DNA of 64,000 nucleotides, taken from NCBI GenBank assembly GCA_014729995.1, contig WJIZ01000029.1, positions 12,779-76,778 on the forward strand, given 5' to 3'. The notes below the pieces were generated by a model that worked only from the letters and a program-made list of their open reading frames with translations, was not told the DNA's origin and did not search any database. Both the position numbers and the translations under genes were made by a program. Origin of the DNA: Candidatus Woesearchaeota archaeon (GTDB lineage Archaea > Nanobdellota > Nanobdellia > Woesearchaeales > WJIZ01). Position 1 is the first letter of the stretch, and every line of letters begins with the position of its first letter. This document shows positions 2,934-15,122 of this stretch, in pieces.

Positions 2934-4268
2934 TCAATTGGCACGTATCACAGAAAGAACCTCATCACGTTTCTCTTCCATCTTCTCCTTTGTCTTTGCT
3001 TCCAAATTTAATCTAAGCAAAGATTCAGTATTAGAAGGCCGAACATTAAACCACCAGTCATCAAAATCAACCCGAATACCGTCCAGCAAAGAGATTTCGC
3101 CTTCTTTATACTTCTCTTTTAGTTCCTCGATCTTCTTCTCCTTGTCTTCAACCTTGGAATTGATCTCCCCTGTAGCATAATATCTTTTCAGAGGCTTGAT
3201 CAGCTCAGACAGATTCTTCCCTTTAGCAGAAAGATAGTTAAGCACCCATATTGCAGCTATCACCCCGGAATCAGTGAAATAATTCTCCCGGAAATAGAAG
3301 TGTCCGCTTAATTCTCCAGCAAATATTCCATTCTCTTCACGCATCATCTGCTTGATAAAGCTATGCCCTACCCTGCTCATCTTGCAGTTTCCGCCGCTAT
3401 GCTCAATAACCTCAGGCACGATCCAGCTGCTCCTTAAGTCATAGAGTATGGCTTCTCCCTTATGCTCCTTTAAAATTTCCTCTGCTATAAGCGCTGTAAT
3501 AAAGTCAGACGCAACTAAATTGCCCCTGTCATCCACAAAAAAGACCCTGTCAGCATCACCGTCAAACGCTATTCCCAAGTCAGCTTTCTCTTTCAACACA
3601 GTCTCCTTCAGCTTATCCACTGCCCCCTCTTTCATAGGATTGGCATCATGGTTAGGAAACTTTCCATCAAGCTCAAAATAAAGCGGGATAACATCAACAC
3701 CAATCCCCCTCTTTATCAGGGAAAAATCCTGGCTGCCCATGCCATTAGCACAGTCAACAACAACTTTCAGCCCTTTTACATCCTTCACAAAGGAAAGAAG
3801 ATGCTTCTTATACGCTTCTTTCACATCTTTTTTCTCTATTTTCCCCTGCCCGGAAACATCCTTGAAATCACTATTGGCAACTTTCTCCTCTATCTCCTTA
3901 ATTCCCGTGTCACCCGAAACAGGAATTGCCTTCTCCCTTGTAAACTTCACACCATTGTACTCTTTGGGGTTATGCGAAGCAGTTATCATGGCGCAGCCGT
4001 CAGCATTGAGAAAATTGCATGCAAAATAGCTCATCGGCGTGCTTGTTAAGCCAAAATCAATTACATCTTTTCCCTGCGAGATAACCCCTTTTGCAAAAGC
4101 CTCAAAAAGCGACCTTGAAGACAGCCTCATATCATAGCCGACAGCAATCTTCTTCCCGGAAATGAAGTCAGCAAAAGCCTTACCTATCTTCTCCATCACT
4201 TTTTCATTTATCTCTTCAGGATACAATCCCCTTATATCATAAGCTTTGAATATGCCCATAATAATCAC
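2934..4268 (-). CDS. Phosphoglucomutase/phosphomannomutase (alpha-D-phosphohexomutase family).
   Basis: KAYDIRG N-terminus. ITASHNP phosphoserine-loop motif. Length of about 440 aa is typical for archaeal PGM/PMM. Confidence 0.85.
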   Translation of the reverse strand: MIIMGIFKAYDIRGLYPEEINEKVMEKIGKAFADFISGKKIAVGYDMRLSSRSLFEAFAKGVISQGKDVIDFGLTSTPMSYFACNFLNADGCAMITASHNPKEYNGVKFTREKAIPVSGDTGIKEIEEKVANSDFKDVSGQGKIEKKDVKEAYKKHLLSFVKDVKGLKVVVDCANGMGSQDFSLIKRGIGVDVIPLYFELDGKFPNHDANPMKEGAVDKLKETVLKEKADLGIAFDGDADRVFFVDDRGNLVASDFITALIAEEILKEHKGEAILYDLRSSWIVPEVIEHSGGNCKMSRVGHSFIKQMMREENGIFAGELSGHFYFRENYFTDSGVIAAIWVLNYLSAKGKNLSELIKPLKRYYATGEINSKVEDKEKKIEELKEKYKEGEISLLDGIRVDFDDWWFNVRPSNTESLLRLNLEAKTKEKMEEKRDEVLSVIRAN

Positions 4269-10567: not shown

Positions 10568-11050
10568 ATGGATTATAAAAACATCTTCTCTTTTGATATA
10601 AAGTGGAGCTCTAAGACAGTCAGCTTATTCATCTTTCTATTAATCCTACCTAATTTCTTAGGCATGATCAATCTTTCGACAAAAACAGGCTTCAAGATTC
10701 ATTTCTTTCAGTACGCAGTTTTTCTAGCAGCAATCATATATGGACCAAAAGGCGGTCTGTTATCAGGATTCGTCGGCTCAACATACTCCGCTTTTATAAT
10801 GCACAATCCCTACATCGCTGTAGGCAACGCAATATTGGGCTTCTTCACAGGGCTTTTCATAAGATATGGCTCAAAAACAATCTTGGCAGTTCTTTTAGCA
10901 TATATTATACAGCTGCCTTGGCTTATACTAACAGATTATTTTTTAGTGCATCTTCCTATGTCTTTTATAATGCCCTTAATCATGGCATTATTTTTCTCAA
11001 ATATAGTCTGGGCAATCGCAGCTCATTATACAGCCAAGTTAGTAAAATGA
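10568..11050 (+). CDS. Small polytopic membrane protein resembling an ECF-transporter S-component.
   Basis: About 5 TM helices. HFFQYAVFLAAIIYGPKGGLLSG motif typical of ECF substrate-capture subunits. Its stop overlaps the next start as ATGA. Confidence 0.5.
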   Translation: MDYKNIFSFDIKWSSKTVSLFIFLLILPNFLGMINLSTKTGFKIHFFQYAVFLAAIIYGPKGGLLSGFVGSTYSAFIMHNPYIAVGNAILGFFTGLFIRYGSKTILAVLLAYIIQLPWLILTDYFLVHLPMSFIMPLIMALFFSNIVWAIAAHYTAKLVK

Positions 11051-11436
11051 AGCCTGATTTTGAAAAATATTCTTTAGCATTAATCAAAAACAATAAGGTA
11101 GTCTATTCTTCAGACAAACCGGGCTTAAGACCTCTTGTCAACTGTATAGCTAAAAATAAGGAAAAAAAGGATTGCGCTCTTCATGATAAGGTTATAGGAT
11201 TGGCAGCCGCTAAATTAGTCTTTAATTCAGGTATTGCTGAGAAAATTGTAACAAGTATTATTTCAAAGCCTGCTTTTGACTTTCTGAAAGATAAGCTTGT
11301 TGTTGAATATGATGAAATAGTCAAAAACATCCTCAACACAGAAAGAAAAGTTATCTGCCCTATGGAGAAGAAAGCACTGGAACTCGATGAAGCTTCTTTT
11401 TTGAGACATGTGAACAAGATATTTAATCAAGAATAA
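11047..11436 (+). CDS. Conserved hypothetical protein of about 129 aa.
   Basis: ATG at 11047 overlaps the upstream stop. The ORF-track entry 10918.. is a 5' extension inside the previous gene. No family assigned with confidence. Confidence 0.5.
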   Translation: MKPDFEKYSLALIKNNKVVYSSDKPGLRPLVNCIAKNKEKKDCALHDKVIGLAAAKLVFNSGIAEKIVTSIISKPAFDFLKDKLVVEYDEIVKNILNTERKVICPMEKKALELDEASFLRHVNKIFNQE

Positions 11437-11460
11437 ATTATTATTGTTTTATAGAAAAAC

Positions 11461-11556
11461 CAACAACATAGCTGGCTGACGGAGGTTGCCCCCTTCGGGG
11501 TGTCAGCGAGCATTTTTGCTAAGCAAAAATGCGACAGCCCATGTTGTTGTTGTTGG
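11461..11556 (+). ncRNA. Candidate structured RNA element with a three-way junction. An outer stem CAACAACAU/AUGUUGUUG encloses a CUGAC-stem hairpin capped by a cUUCGg tetraloop and a second hairpin GCAUUUUUGC-UAA-GCAAAAAUGC.
   Basis: Perfect and near-perfect complementarity read directly from the sequence. A T-rich tract follows at 11556-11575. Confidence 0.35.
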
Positions 11557-11639
11557 TTTTTCTTTTGAAATTATAATCTTATTATTTCCTCAAATCAAAA
11601 CCTATTTAAACAATCTGCATAATTTAAGCTTAAGCCAAG

Positions 11640-11746
11640 GAAAGTATCGTGAAATTCGGTCGCTGGCCCGCAGCCGTTAAAGCCGGAATACTTGCATATT
11701 ACAAGGGTCGAGGATTGTCCGCAGGATTTCTGCGAACATTTTTAAC
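11640..11746 (+). promoter_or_regulatory. Candidate cobalamin (B12) riboswitch-like leader. It resembles the compact AdoCbl-variant class.
   Basis: AGGAAAGUAUCGUGAAAUUCGGUC resembles the conserved GGGAAAG..CGUGAAAUUCG core of Cbl riboswitches. It is followed by GGCCCGCAGCCG, a degenerate B12 box (consensus CCCGCCACUG). A terminal hairpin CGCAG-GAUUU-CUGCG sits 12 nt before the ATG. The context is an ECF S-component plus DUF4430. Confidence 0.4.
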
Positions 11747-12505
11747 ATGTCTAAAAAGCAAAAGCTTAAGCTAAAAAAGAAGAAGAAAGAACAGAAAGAA
11801 AAGCAGAAGCTCTCAACCGAGCAGAGATTAGCAATAAAAGCTGTGCAAAAGCAGCTTCAATTATTGAAACTAAGGGAGCTTTTATTATTGATAGGCTTCA
11901 CAACAGGCGGAGCATTGTTAAGAATTCCGATGCAAGCTATCCCAAGTGCAGAGCCATTAACATTCTTCGCAATACTATCAGGCTGGCTTTTTGGTAGGAA
12001 AAAGGGAGCAGCTGTAGGAGCTTCTTCATTATATATCTCAAATTTCTTCATGTTCGGCGGACAAGGTCCCTGGAGCATTTTGCAGGCAATAGGCTTTGGC
12101 ATAGCGGGCTGGCTAGGGGGCTTGTTAAGAAAAAAAGCATCATACTTAGAAGTGATGATAATTACAATAATTGCTACATTGGTTTTTGAGGTAATTATGA
12201 ACGCTTTCACCCCACTTATGGTGGGCTCATCTATTTTCATGGCTTTTGCGCTTGCATTGCCTTTCACGCTGATACACCTTGCTTCCAACTTCATTTTCGC
12301 TTTAGTATTACCTTCAACAAAAAAATTTGTCGAAAAGACAGGAGGCTTCAATGAAAAGGATATTTGTGCTAGTATTCTTGATAAGTATAATATTAGCACT
12401 AAGCTTGATTGGATTAAGAAATTTAGAAGAAGACCGAAGCACGGGCAAGGCAACATTGATAATAAGGACGATAGGAAGCACAGCACAGGAACAGGTGGAG
12501 CTTGA
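11747..12505 (+). CDS. Membrane protein resembling an ECF-transporter S-component, with a Lys-rich N-terminal tail. The 3' end overlaps the next gene in another frame.
   Basis: Five to six TM helices (GFTTGGALLRIPMQAIP..., GFGIAGWLGGLL). No ecfA or ecfT in the window. Confidence 0.5.
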   Translation: MSKKQKLKLKKKKKEQKEKQKLSTEQRLAIKAVQKQLQLLKLRELLLLIGFTTGGALLRIPMQAIPSAEPLTFFAILSGWLFGRKKGAAVGASSLYISNFFMFGGQGPWSILQAIGFGIAGWLGGLLRKKASYLEVMIITIIATLVFEVIMNAFTPLMVGSSIFMAFALALPFTLIHLASNFIFALVLPSTKKFVEKTGGFNEKDICASILDKYNISTKLDWIKKFRRRPKHGQGNIDNKDDRKHSTGTGGA

Positions 12506-12710
12506 AGGAAAAAATGTGTTGGAATATCTTCAGGAAAAACACGATGTAAGGATATCCGGAAAGCAGCTTACATGCATAGATGATGTCTGCGCAAAAAAAG
12601 GCTTTTGGTGGAAATTTTTTGTAAACGATAAGCTTATTTTAAGCTCGGCTGATAGGTATTATCCAAAAAATGGGGATATAATCTTATTAGATTATGGTGA
12701 TGAAGAATGA
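12351..12710 (+). CDS. DUF4430 (transcobalamin beta-domain-like) secreted or anchored protein.
   Basis: GGAGG SD 8 nt upstream of ATG 12351. Signal/TM MKRIFVLVFLISIILALSLIG. DUF4430-like C-terminus WWKFFVNDKLILSSADRYYPKNGDIILLDYG. Confidence 0.55.
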   Translation: MKRIFVLVFLISIILALSLIGLRNLEEDRSTGKATLIIRTIGSTAQEQVELEGKNVLEYLQEKHDVRISGKQLTCIDDVCAKKGFWWKFFVNDKLILSSADRYYPKNGDIILLDYGDEE

Positions 12711-14086
12711 AGAAAATCGGACTTTTTTTACTGTTAATATTAATGCCCTTCGCCTACGCACTTAAAACAGGTGTAGTAATCGATGATGGAGCTAAAATCT
12801 ACAAAGGCTGTGTAGATATCAACAGCCAAGACTCTGCTTACGATGTATTGAAAGCTTTCGATAGCCAGAGAGACGAGCTAAAATTGACAATCGATGGCGG
12901 CACCTTAGGCACGCCAGCATTTCTAAGGGCAGTAAATGGTAAAGAAGGCGGCTGTGCAGATAATGATATAAACAACTGTCTAAAATGGAGAGGCTGGAAT
13001 TTTTGGATAGCAGATAATGATAACCACTTCACAGAGCCGCCTGAACTTTCTCCAGGATGGGGGATGGCTATCAGCGATTATAAGGTTGAAGCACAAGATG
13101 TGATAGGCATTAATTTTGCGATTACAGAATATAATGCAGACTTTTCAACAAAATCCAAGCCAGAAAAGCCAGATTACATAAAATATGATGGTCTATGCAA
13201 TAAACTAAAAATTAAGGAAATAGATATTGAAGTAGATGGCGACAATGAACATATAGACGAACAAGGCGGAGAAATAGAAGTAAAATCAGGTTCAGAGATT
13301 GAGATAGAAATTGAGCTTAAAAACTTATATGAAGATATTGAAATAGAAGATGTATATATCAAAGCAGAAATTGAAGATATTGATGCAGGGGAAGACTTAA
13401 CAAAAGATACAGGAGAAGAGTATATCCTTCCTCAAAGAGATGAGACTTTCAGGTTGGGTTTCAACCTGCCCCAGATTCTAGAAGACGATGAGTACGAGCT
13501 TCTTATAAATATATTTGGTGTGGATGAATACAATCTTGAATATTTTGAAGAGCTTAATTATGATATAGAAGTTGATAAAGAATCTCACGAGATAGTATTA
13601 GATGATATAGAATTTAAAAAAGATATCGGCTGCAGGCAAACTGCATTAATTACAATAACTATCGCAAACATTGGAGAGAATGATGAGGAAATCGATATTA
13701 CTGTTTCTGAGTCTGGAAAAATCTATGAAACAGACACTTTTTTTCTGGAAGAAAGCGATAAAACACAGAAATATTACACACTTGATATAAATGAGCCCGG
13801 AAATCATGTCATAAGAATAGAAGCAGAATACAGCGGAAAGGCGATATACGAAAGCATAATAATAGAGAAAGAAAAATGCGATAAAAAAGAACAGAATGCA
13901 GTCAGTTTAGAGCAGACCGATGAAAAGGACCATAAAGAAGAAATCCAATTGGAATTCACAGACACAAGGAACCGGAACACAGCCCAAACAAAAACACGGG
14001 GCAGTATTTTGCCTTATGTTTTATTAGTGCTCTTCTTAATAGGAATAGCCACGGCATTGTTAGTTATAATTACACTATCTCGATAA
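12707..14086 (+). CDS. Surface protein with a signal peptide, a DUF4430-like N-domain, acidic Glu/Ile/Asp repeats and a C-terminal TM anchor.
   Basis: MKKIGLFLLLILMPFAYA. ..WNFWIADNDNHF..GMAISDYKVEAQDVIGINF. EIEIEIELKNLYEDIEIEDVYIKAEIEDIDAGED. C-terminal ILPYVLLVLFLIGIATALLVII. Confidence 0.6.
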   Translation: MKKIGLFLLLILMPFAYALKTGVVIDDGAKIYKGCVDINSQDSAYDVLKAFDSQRDELKLTIDGGTLGTPAFLRAVNGKEGGCADNDINNCLKWRGWNFWIADNDNHFTEPPELSPGWGMAISDYKVEAQDVIGINFAITEYNADFSTKSKPEKPDYIKYDGLCNKLKIKEIDIEVDGDNEHIDEQGGEIEVKSGSEIEIEIELKNLYEDIEIEDVYIKAEIEDIDAGEDLTKDTGEEYILPQRDETFRLGFNLPQILEDDEYELLINIFGVDEYNLEYFEELNYDIEVDKESHEIVLDDIEFKKDIGCRQTALITITIANIGENDEEIDITVSESGKIYETDTFFLEESDKTQKYYTLDINEPGNHVIRIEAEYSGKAIYESIIIEKEKCDKKEQNAVSLEQTDEKDHKEEIQLEFTDTRNRNTAQTKTRGSILPYVLLVLFLIGIATALLVIITLSR

Positions 14087-14135: not shown

Positions 14136-15122
14136 ATGAGGGTGGTTTTTGCATTAATGTTCTTAGTTCTTTCCAGTTTTTGCTGTGCCCAGAATTTGGA
14201 TATAAGCGTTTATGAGGAGACAGGCCAGGGAAGAAGATTCGGCAATATCAATGCAGAGCCTGGCCAGACAGTGGAATTCTTCATCCATGCGGAGAACCGC
14301 AACCAGGACAGGAGCGACGATTCACAGGACATAGAGGACATCGAGATAAAAGCCACTATAGAAGAAATTGATGAAGGCGAGGATATCGAAGAGGAATATG
14401 ATGATTTTGACCTCAATGCCAAACAGGATGAAAGCCTCTCTTTCAGGCTGAAAATCCCTTTAAGGGTAAGGGATGCCCTTTATGACATTAATATCGAGTA
14501 CGAGTATGAGGAAGATGGCAAAAAATTCTCAGGCAGCACAGATTATTTTCTGGATGTGGACAAGGAAAAGCAAAATCTTTATCTTAAAAAACTCGGATTC
14601 CGGCCGGCAAGCATAAAATGCAATGAAATTTCATACCTTGAGATAGGGCTCATGAACCTTGGCACTTCAGACGCGGGCATTGTAATAACAGCCAGCAATG
14701 ACGAGCTTGATTTCACCCTCAGAAGGGCATCCTTTCTTGAAGCTTACCCTGGGGATGATATATACGAAAACAGGTTCGCCATTAAAGTCCCAAAGCAGGC
14801 CGAAAGCAAGCCCTACAAATTTGAAATCACAGTTAACGACAATAATGGTAATCTTCTGAAAAGGGAAACAGCCGAGCTTGATGTTAGCTGCCTTTCCGAA
14901 AAAACCGAATCTTCAGGGCAGCAGCAACAGCAGCAGAAGCAACAGCAGCCAGAGGAAAAAGAAGAGGATATAATCCCATCAGAACAGCCTAAGCTACAGC
15001 AGCGAGAGGAAATAATAGTGGAAAGCAGCAGCAGCTTTCCGGTTTATTTAATCATCCTGTTTGTCTTAATAGCCATTGCAGCAGTATTGTTGATAATATT
15101 GCTAAATAAAAAGAAACCATAG
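14136..15122 (+). CDS. Paralogous surface protein: signal peptide, acidic repeat module, poly-Gln linker and C-terminal TM anchor.
   Basis: MRVVFALMFLVLSSFCCAQN. IEEIDEGEDIEEEYDDFDLNAKQDESLSFRLKIP parallels a module in the previous gene. QQQQQQKQQQPEEKEE. C-terminal FPVYLIILFVLIAIAAVLLIILL. Confidence 0.6.
   Translation: MRVVFALMFLVLSSFCCAQNLDISVYEETGQGRRFGNINAEPGQTVEFFIHAENRNQDRSDDSQDIEDIEIKATIEEIDEGEDIEEEYDDFDLNAKQDESLSFRLKIPLRVRDALYDINIEYEYEEDGKKFSGSTDYFLDVDKEKQNLYLKKLGFRPASIKCNEISYLEIGLMNLGTSDAGIVITASNDELDFTLRRASFLEAYPGDDIYENRFAIKVPKQAESKPYKFEITVNDNNGNLLKRETAELDVSCLSEKTESSGQQQQQQKQQQPEEKEEDIIPSEQPKLQQREEIIVESSSSFPVYLIILFVLIAIAAVLLIILLNKKKP

Follow-up and report, generated by a model that had tools for sequence, protein, structure and literature searches.

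Can an archaeon carry a cobalamin riboswitch, and how would the signal of such an RNA reach the genes behind it? The question is raised by a leader in a stretch of 64,000 nucleotides (nt) from a Candidatus Woesearchaeota archaeon (contig WJIZ01000029.1, positions 12,779 to 76,778). We call this whole 64-kb stretch the window, and all positions below are counted from its first letter. An earlier reading of the letters alone had proposed a cobalamin-riboswitch-like element at 11640-11746, upstream of genes for an S-component of the energy-coupling factor (ECF) type and for DUF4430 proteins. We put the probability at about 0.9 that this element is a genuine riboswitch of the cobalamin class, native to DPANN archaea.

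To identify the element, we scanned the whole window with cmscan against 4227 Rfam families, taking the curated gathering scores as the cut-off. A single match exceeded its gathering score: RF01689 (AdoCbl-II, formerly "AdoCbl-variant") at 11620-11701 on the forward strand, with 42.3 bits against a threshold of 36.5 and an E-value of 9.4e-7, spanning the full model (1-81). When the scan was confined to 11400-11800, the E-value was 5.9e-9, and a permissive Rfam scan of the same region returned nothing notable beyond RF01689. Within clan CL00101, too, RF01689 is the best match for the window. The resemblance to the core of AdoCbl-variant riboswitches such as env8, from which the original prediction had started, is thus borne out by a match that passes Rfam's curated threshold. 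The strings quoted for it are all there, AGGAAAGUAUCGUGAAAUUCGGUC at 11638-11661 and GGCCCGCAGCCG at 11665-11676. The second had been taken for the B12 box, and this we correct: it is really loop L5 together with the 3' strand of helix P5 and the 5' strand of helix P6, and the homologue of the B12 box (P6 3' strand, junction strand J6/3 and P3 3' strand) is CGGAAUACUUGC at 11684-11695. The proposed interval was too narrow. The element extends from a TATA box at 11603-11610 through an aptamer core at 11634-11695 to an expression platform at 11696-11746.

The aptamer recurs in related genomes. Using an alignment of 36 homologues of the DUF6580 protein encoded directly downstream, at 11747-12505, we fetched 150 loci, 70 of them in GTDB species genomes and the other 80 in metagenomes. 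R1, a family-specific covariance model built in this analysis, found 32 matches in these 150 loci and the window taken together (56-90 bits, E <=4e-11), and all 32 lie on the gene strand. After copies common to the GTDB and metagenome collections had been merged, there were 28 distinct aptamers in 27 sources, the window included; the aptamer thus stands ahead of the homologous operon in 26 further non-redundant DPANN loci. The Rfam model agrees with R1 in most cases. RF01689 scored above threshold in 13 of the 20 loci scanned first (14 matches, 38-50 bits) and in 8 of 13 additional loci; altogether 23 of the 28 distinct copies (the window and 22 others) exceed the Rfam threshold and five fall short of it. 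Since 15 of the 70 GTDB species genomes with the operon carry the aptamer, it is not one stray match. Two viral-contig matches to the DPANN-type L5-P6 string were set aside as chance: neither was confirmed by the aptamer model, and one of the two, L151, is part of a GC-rich coding sequence of a phage.

The aptamer also keeps its place relative to the operon. In 21 loci its end lies 22-62 nt before the first ATG of the DUF6580 gene, save for 120 nt in one of them (L046), and seven matches sit farther upstream. Four loci have the aptamer ahead of an additional gene of 865-1045 codons that fronts the same operon, inserted before the DUF6580 gene (L025:739-3336, L036:233-3148, L099:765-3902 and L101:272-3908). 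Its product begins with MLA(T/A)LP and has no Pfam match; two of the four large proteins end in a DUF4430-looking motif, ...LNGIIVLINGEEP...W.Y.L..GD.IEIVYKND, which Pfam leaves unscored. In L039 and L040 the aptamer lies about 400-540 nt upstream of the DUF6580 gene, with a 129-aa open reading frame (ORF) in between in L040. One locus, L031 (the same as L117), holds two aptamers, at 3116-3194 and 3896-3974, which are 780 nt apart and have a TATA box each; the first precedes a gene for a 175-aa acidic protein and the second directly precedes the DUF6580 gene.

The core of the aptamer (11634-11695, forward strand; 83 bits with R1) is a four-way junction. Helix P3 (11634-11639/11691-11695) and junction strand J3/4 (11640-11643) lead to P4, whose five pairs (11644 and 11646-11649 with 11657-11661) carry the L4 T-loop, UGAAAUU (11650-11656). 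P5 (11664-11665/11671-11672) carries L5, GCCCG (11666-11670). P6 (11674-11676/11684-11686), of 3 bp, carries L6, UUAAAGC (11677-11683), the partner of the L4 T-loop, and J6/3 (11687-11690) reads AAUA.

In the alignment of the 28 distinct sequences, 94% of the cells hold standard pairs and 36 cells are changed on both sides. We controlled this result in two ways. None of 500 shuffles matched the observed pairing, the double-change count or the covariation score, and when the 3' partners were slid by 1-3 columns, pairing fell to 25-42%. Double-sided changes occur at all five pairs of P4, which is 98.5% paired; in P5, GC becomes CG in two sequences, and one pair of P3 is found as UA, CG and UG. 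A MAFFT alignment, never fitted to structure, yielded similar covariation values. The unpaired parts are conserved as well: J3/4 (GGAAAG), the L4 T-loop, L6 and the P6 3' strand with J6/3 are near-invariant and family-like, and in 26 of 28 copies there is almost no variation in AAGGAAAG and CCG-UAAAG-CGGAA; L025 and L055 are without the L4 motif. P6 has 3 bp and a 6-7 nt loop, with no extension or peripheral domain, in 27 of 28 copies. A covariance-model check and the conservation or covariation of the stems in related genomes had been set beforehand as tests of the original prediction, and it passed both. We take this as confirmation that the aptamer is real and that the resemblance goes well beyond chance.

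Some copies depart from this plan. L040 (3245-3338) has a 17-nt hairpin inserted in L6. In L025 (274-349) and L055 (2002-2074) a plain hairpin replaces the L4 T-loop GUGAAAU; these two have the lowest scores and are below the Rfam threshold.

The genome in which the aptamer lies had been described as archaeal, and this description holds. The protein at 11747-12505 is 100% identical to GF323_03630 from a metagenome-assembled genome (MAG) of a Candidatus Woesearchaeota archaeon. Relatives of this protein are almost confined to Woesearchaeota, Nanoarchaeota, Pacearchaeota and "Nanobdellati", among them the 70 GTDB DPANN species genomes, and some bulk third-party assemblies are titled "uncultured Methanosarcinales archaeon". 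The window encodes diphthamide synthase and a TrmB regulator, and its base composition is even throughout. In relatives, the neighbours of the operon include proteasome subunits (L031, L039) and TrmB. The expression signals are archaeal too, with promoters composed of a B recognition element (BRE) and a TATA box. In many first genes of the window, the ATG follows a TATA-like box at a distance of about 25-30 nt, an indication that many of these genes are leaderless, and operon-internal genes have Shine-Dalgarno (SD) sequences of the GGTGA/AGGAGG type. We consider the archaeal (DPANN) assignment, which rests on MAGs, to be sound.

The position of the promoter bears on how much of a class-II riboswitch is transcribed. 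The archaeal TATA box TATTTAAA lies at 11603-11610 on the forward strand, with the start predicted at about 11632-11636, at the base of P3. A box of the TTTTTATATA or TTTAAATA type is present in nearly all 28 copies, TTTTTATATA in most; it ends about 24-35 nt before the AAGGAAAG core and is preceded by a purine-rich, BRE-like stretch. From the usual archaeal spacing between TATA box and start, we infer that transcription begins at the 5' strand of P3 or a few nt before it. With such a start, the outer helix that Rfam draws at 11620-11625/11696-11701, which has a mismatch in the window, is probably not real. We looked for a conserved outer helix across the copies and saw none; in several of them P3 is prolonged to an uninterrupted helix of 6-12 bp. 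Between TATA-to-core spacing and the length of P3 there is a correlation that is only suggestive (rho 0.38, p 0.054). Bacterial members of class II have a helix P1 and an internal loop, J1/3, whose T-loop contacts J6/3 and is a key determinant of selectivity (PMC6158498). Because of the promoter position and the continuous P3 helices, we think that P1 and the J1/3 T-loop are probably absent from the DPANN RNAs and that their closing helix is continuous.

A second conserved element follows the aptamer on its 3' side. It consists of an A-rich linker, GGAUC-G[U/A/G]GGAG-(U)UGUCC, a short variable loop and GGAY-UUCUCU; then come 8-20 A/U-rich nt and the start codon. In the window the linker, single-stranded between P3 and P13 and equivalent to J1/13, occupies 11696-11704 (forward strand), and its sequence varies among copies. 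It leads to the P13 hairpin (11705-11720, forward strand), in which GGGU (11705-11708) pairs with GUCC (11717-11720) around L13, CGAGGAUU (11709-11716). Among the copies the 4-bp P13 (GGAU:GUCC) is paired in 98.9-100% of cells, three cells are compensatory, and the closing pair occurs as GC (16), GU (3), AU (2) and UA (1).

The loop of P13 matches L5. In the window C11709, G11710, G11712 and G11713 are complementary to C11667-G11670, with A11711 bulged, and in the main type the CG[N]GG of L13 can pair with L5, whose CCCG is invariant, while N stays unpaired. The natural variants L039 and L040 have UGCCG as L5, CCU/AGG as P13 and CG[A]GCA as L13; here all kissing pairs are restored, one is added and the bulge is kept. 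Experiments have established two hallmarks of the kissing loops of cobalamin riboswitches, an L13 borne by a stem-loop and a kissing helix in which one or more nucleotides stay unpaired (PMC5028336). A regulatory kissing loop between L5 and L13 can thus be predicted from complementarity.

P13 has a competitor. A predicted alternative, ligand-free hairpin at 11710-11743 (forward strand), which would exclude P13, consists of an outer helix, GAGGAU:AUUUUU, and the inner hairpin CGCAG-GAUUU-CUGCG at 11720-11734. The inner hairpin had been reported before as a terminal one. It is indeed present, exactly 12 nt ahead of the ATG at 11747, but it is a component of a larger bistable platform. The alternative hairpin as a whole would bury both UUUCU, a pyrimidine tract, and the T5 run at 11739-11743. 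It is the minimum free energy (MFE) structure of the isolated platform in the window and in nearly all homologues. Among the copies it pairs GGAG with CUCU and GUCC with the downstream GGAY, around an inner hairpin that is variable and has long inserts in L009, L017 and L120. Since this fold is more stable than the P13-forced state by ~6.7 kcal/mol on average, P13 is expected to prevail only when a ligand stabilises docking. In L051 and L055 a closer GAG is the partner of the tract's CUC, so that the sequence of the pyrimidine tract is kept while its partner changes. The two copies in L031 are without the usual P13 stem, and their GGAG pairs straight with UUUCUCU.

We considered several conventional roles for the platform and rejected them. 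GGAUCGUGGAG... as a leader peptide or upstream start is ruled out by frame-breaking single-nt length variants and by stops. The GGAG in L13 cannot be the SD of the first gene, given the spacing: the start codon lies 26 nt past P13 in the window and about 23-45 nt past it in relatives. Most copies are also without an SD close to the start. The pattern expected for RF01689 has the ribosome-binding site in L13/P13, where docking would block initiation; here L13 does hold GGAG/GAGGA, and the start is too distant. Occlusion of the start codon is a weak candidate, since constrained folding gave an accessibility of the -15..+10 region of 0.54 vs 0.57 in the two states (n=22, p about 0.1). What does differ between the states, by the same calculation, is the exposure of (GGAY)UUCUCU.

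These features suggest a switch, and we think it likely that it works by kissing loop and alternative hairpin as set out here, with repression as the outcome. The RNA would start at the base of P3, which would put the riboswitch at the very 5' end of a three-gene mRNA. Without ligand, the downstream hairpin would capture the P13 3' strand and the GGAG of L13, burying (GGAY)UUCUCU (UUUCU...UUUUU in the window). A bound corrinoid would stabilise the kissing of L5 (CCCG) with the loop of the weak 4-bp P13 (CG[N]GG). By analogy within the family, this corrinoid is probably one with a small upper ligand, for example hydroxo- or methylcobalamin. Binding would flip the platform and expose the pyrimidine tract just upstream of the start codon. 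The freed U/C-rich tract could then cause archaeal termination or cleavage before the coding region and turn the uptake operon off. Overall, a sufficient supply of B12 would most likely repress the uptake operon.

The read-out is not SD occlusion of the bacterial type. An exposed U/C-rich tract acting as an archaeal termination or cleavage signal is our preferred guess, and our confidence in any particular read-out mechanism is low. T/C-rich tracts are the kind of signal used in archaeal termination, and operon ends in the window have them, such as TTTTTCTTATCTTTTTT and TTCTTTCTTTTTTTCTT. A further-reaching proposal is that DPANN archaea have domesticated a class-II riboswitch as an archaea-specific device, a minimal aptamer without P1 and J1/3 at the transcript start whose switch, instead of covering a ribosome-binding site, exposes a U/C tract that triggers termination or cleavage, for example FttA/aCPSF1-dependent. 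We offer it tentatively. If true, this would be the first such riboswitch read-out, in a clade whose relatives use a protein operator for the same operon.

Loci without the riboswitch give an indication of the sign of control. A 17-bp palindrome, TTGGATAT-N-ATATCCAA, lies beside the operon in at least 31 riboswitch-less loci, often between the TATA box and the DUF6580 ATG, and elsewhere before the upstream gene of the operon (for example L005:3906, L083:3902, L077:3906 and L003:5654). It is found in no riboswitch locus, the window included. The RNA sensor and what is presumably a protein operator thus seem to stand in for one another at this operon. The palindrome is at a repressor-type position and therefore fits negative control.

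The genes behind the switch point to corrinoid uptake. The first (11747-12505, forward strand) encodes a DUF6580/ECF-S-component-like membrane protein with a Lys-rich N-terminus; it scores 34.3 bits with Pfam DUF6580, whose gathering score is 27, and is just under threshold with ECF-ribofla_trS (23.9 bits, cutoff 26.7). Relatives of the protein carry the JGI annotation "ECF substrate-specific component". When its profile was searched against the PDB, the top entry, 6FNP chain A, was non-significant (E 0.11); we take this chain to be CbrT of the ECF-CbrT B12 transporter. The second gene (12351-12710, forward strand) encodes a 119-aa DUF4430 protein with an N-terminal signal or anchor (Pfam DUF4430, PF14478; 26.6 vs 23.8 bits). 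In InterPro, DUF4430 is named the transcobalamin-like C-terminal domain. The gene has an AGGAGG SD at 12340-12345 and shares with the DUF6580 ORF, in a different frame, the final 155 nt of that ORF; at its other end, its stop and the ATG that follows are fused in ATGA at 12707-12710. The overlapping arrangement is present in 98 of the 150 related loci. A seemingly conserved GGFNEK motif near the C-terminus of DUF6580 proteins coincides with the SD and start codon of the DUF4430 gene.

The third gene (12707-14086, forward strand) encodes a 459-aa secreted acidic repeat protein, anchored at its C-terminus. Its N-terminal domain (~12764-13240) was modelled as a transcobalamin-beta-like fold with moderate confidence, the model being based on a 5-row alignment because homologue searches gave just 2-4 proteins. 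This domain has no Pfam match, and PDB searches with its profile and with the DUF4430 ORF gave nothing useful. Against Pfam and NCBIfam, neither 12707-14086 nor the next gene, 14136-15122, gave a DUF4430 match, even at E up to 10. The latter has its own TATA box and promoter and no DUF4430 signal, and we therefore do not count it in the operon. The genomic context named in the original prediction, an S-component followed by DUF4430 proteins, accordingly stands: 11747-12505 is DUF6580/ECF-S-like, 12351-12710 is a DUF4430 protein and the N-terminal domain of 12707-14086 models as transcobalamin-beta-like; only 14136-15122 does not belong to it. The three-gene operon looks like a corrinoid capture-and-import system.

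Two further features lie upstream of the riboswitch promoter. At 10568-11436 (forward strand) there is a second ECF-S-like gene (ECF-ribofla_trS, 30.4 bits), which overlaps a DUF1893 (TM1506) gene. The pair looks like a vitamin-transport unit of its own, whose ATG follows a TATA box at ~30 nt. Between this unit and the riboswitch promoter, at 11448-11570 (forward strand), is an exceptionally stable multi-hairpin element with an MFE of -54.7 kcal/mol (z -6.7), followed by T5CT4. It has a 16-bp outer stem, AAAAACCAACAACA/UGUUGUUGUUGUUGGUUUUU, and its inner hairpins include a CCCC-UUCG-GGGG tetraloop stem. No Rfam family covers the element, and none of the related loci has a copy. It may terminate transcription of the ECF-S/DUF1893 genes upstream of it, or else be an RNA of unknown kind.

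Several observations weigh against our reading of the element and its switch. The RF01689 score is only 6 bits over threshold. P6 never varies and is therefore uninformative on covariation, and RNAalifold by itself recovers just P4 and P6. Folding of the single sequence does not reproduce the aptamer, and the leader is not unusually stable (z +1.5); uninformative single-sequence folding is usual for junction RNAs held by tertiary contacts. In the platform, the main-type kissing pairs never vary and give no covariation signal, and the GGAG:CUCU helix, pairable in 94% of cells, is likewise invariant and without covariation support. The start codon is almost equally accessible in both states. The P1/J1-3 module, which buttresses the pocket in the class-II RNAs studied (PMC6158498), appears to be missing, and this could alter or weaken binding. 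Neither an ECF energising module (EcfA/EcfT) nor a B12-dependent enzyme was found among the 38 window ORFs scanned. The sequences are all MAGs, and we infer the start site, the ligand and the sign of regulation alike.

With these points in mind, we weighed other explanations. Class-II members that have been studied act on translation (PMC5028336), and the same aptamer and switch could have a translational read-out here. A hairpin ending 3-17 nt before an SD-less start would then gate the ribosome, in the simplest form as an ON switch. The alternative hairpin of the window reaches 11743, 3 nt short of the ATG, and with no SD near the start in most copies, local structure could dominate initiation. 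Yet the modelled accessibility of the start region shifts little and inconsistently, and the hairpin ends 9-17 nt upstream of the ATG in most copies. Moreover, scavenging of B12 that is induced by B12 would reverse the logic of the known transporter-associated cobalamin riboswitches, and relatives of the operon have a repressor-type operator. A translational read-out is therefore doubtful in our view. The ligand, too, may differ from the one we favour: the aptamer could bind another corrinoid or tetrapyrrole, such as cobinamide or a cobamide with a different lower ligand, or, with J1/3 missing, could have lost tight binding. The contact between J1/3 and J6/3 is a key determinant of class-II selectivity (PMC6158498), the promoter position and the continuous P3 helices, which reach 12 bp, speak for the absence of J1/3, and J6/3 is AAUA-like here as against AGCG in the Rfam consensus. 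We consider a different ligand unlikely all the same, since the remaining core is near-invariant and family-like and the operon encodes DUF4430 and transcobalamin-like domains; such a ligand would change a detail of the riboswitch and not the kind of element it is.

The other two explanations concern whether the element is archaeal, or functional, at all. Bacterial DNA, for example of the Candidate Phyla Radiation (Patescibacteria), might have been mis-binned or mis-assembled into archaeal genomes. The reliance on MAGs leaves room for this, as does a distant DUF6580 homologue, L064, that is labelled Candidatus Peribacteria, and RF01689 itself was defined on marine metagenomes with taxa unknown. 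However, L064 is without the aptamer. The riboswitch lies mid-window in 64 kb of even composition that also encodes diphthamide synthase and TrmB and in which many ATGs have a TATA box ~30 nt ahead of them; nearly all copies are preceded by BRE/TATA and not by -35/-10 boxes, and the aptamer recurs in 15 independently assembled GTDB DPANN species genomes. We judge a bacterial origin to be very improbable. Finally, the covariance-model match might be due to chance or to a decaying sequence that regulates nothing, which is hardly credible. The modest score, the absence of the L4 T-loop from L025 and L055 and the five copies below the Rfam threshold would be in keeping with it. Against it stand the whole-window E-value of 9.4e-7, the conservation of position, strand and promoter, the compensatory changes in P4, P5, P3, P13 and the kissing loop, and the second conserved element downstream. 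A native class-II (RF01689-type) cobalamin riboswitch is the explanation that we favour.

The original prediction had added that cobalamin riboswitches are not established in Archaea, and this agrees with the literature we could search, which is not exhaustive. McCown et al. (2017) list thiamine pyrophosphate (TPP), fluoride, flavin mononucleotide (FMN), Mg2+-I and guanidine-II riboswitches for Archaea. Papers from 2017-2021 also give lysine and cyclic di-AMP (c-di-AMP) riboswitch candidates, and according to a 2021 paper, the fluoride riboswitch is the only natural archaeal one that has been determined experimentally. In a searchable literature that lacks most subscription journals, we found no report of a cobalamin riboswitch in Archaea, of any riboswitch in DPANN, Woesearchaeota or Nanoarchaeota, or of a link to DUF6580. 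Automatic Rfam annotation of archaeal MAGs may already hold such matches uncommented. What is known, then, is the fold and the ligand class; what is new is that the host is an archaeon, that the architecture is probably truncated and that the read-out platform differs from the bacterial one.

Riboswitches are rare in Archaea, and how ligand binding is converted into gene control there is largely unknown, because archaeal termination and initiation differ from the bacterial processes that riboswitches usually exploit. The element described here brings into the archaeal domain a riboswitch class that is the second most common in Bacteria. It is compact, at ~115 nt; its aptamer is well understood, its platform clearly bistable, and it comes in natural variants, all of which recommends it as a test system for archaeal expression platforms. 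It also marks a corrinoid-scavenging operon in genome-reduced, host-dependent archaea, and this bears on B12 dependence and cross-feeding in DPANN. The probable loss of J1/3 makes it a natural experiment on what class-II riboswitches need for binding and selectivity.

The closest known system is env8 and class IIa (RF01689; structures 4FRN/4FRG), a family defined on marine metagenomes of unknown taxonomy (PMC2864571). The DPANN element shares with it the four-way junction of P3-P6, the GUGAAAUUC-type L4 T-loop with its L6 partner, a short P6 without the class-I extension, and a single-stranded linker followed by the P13 stem-loop, with an L13 that is able to kiss L5 with a bulge and holds a purine-rich GGAG; the B12-transport context is common to both. 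env8, the studied member of RF01689, prefers hydroxo- or methylcobalamin and has a linker of 7 nt; its L13 holds the ribosome-binding site, and docking blocks initiation (PMC5028336). Unlike env8, the element has an archaeal host and a BRE/TATA promoter, and P1 with the J1/3 T-loop is probably absent. L5 is CCCG in DPANN, whereas the Rfam consensus is ACCU, and J6/3 is AAUA-like. In env8 the ribosome-binding site in L13 is beside the start, whereas here the start lies 26 nt past P13 and is mostly SD-less, and the alternative hairpin with its UUCUCU tract has no counterpart in the description of env8.

More distant relatives share parts of this plan. Class-I AdoCbl riboswitches (RF00174, for example E. 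coli btuB) belong to the same clan, CL00101, and have the core junction, the L5-L13 kissing and the corrinoid-uptake genes in common with the DPANN element; they have a P6 extension and peripheral domains that accommodate the adenosyl group, whereas the P6 of the DPANN element has just 3 bp, closed by a loop of 6-7 nt. ECF-CbrT (6FNP) and the bacterial riboswitch-controlled DUF4430/S-component loci likewise combine a small S-component-like protein beside DUF4430 with a cobalamin riboswitch. Unlike in those loci, no EcfA/EcfT is seen near the DPANN locus, the similarity to 6FNP is non-significant, the genes overlap out of frame, and the operon encodes, in addition, a large surface protein that combines acidic repeats with a transcobalamin-beta-like domain. 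The fluoride (crcB) riboswitch of Thermococcus kodakarensis and the TPP riboswitches of Thermoplasmatales are, like the present element, members of classes shared by Bacteria and Archaea that stand before transporter genes; their ligands and folds differ from those of the DPANN element, and they raise the same question of how a riboswitch platform works in an archaeon.

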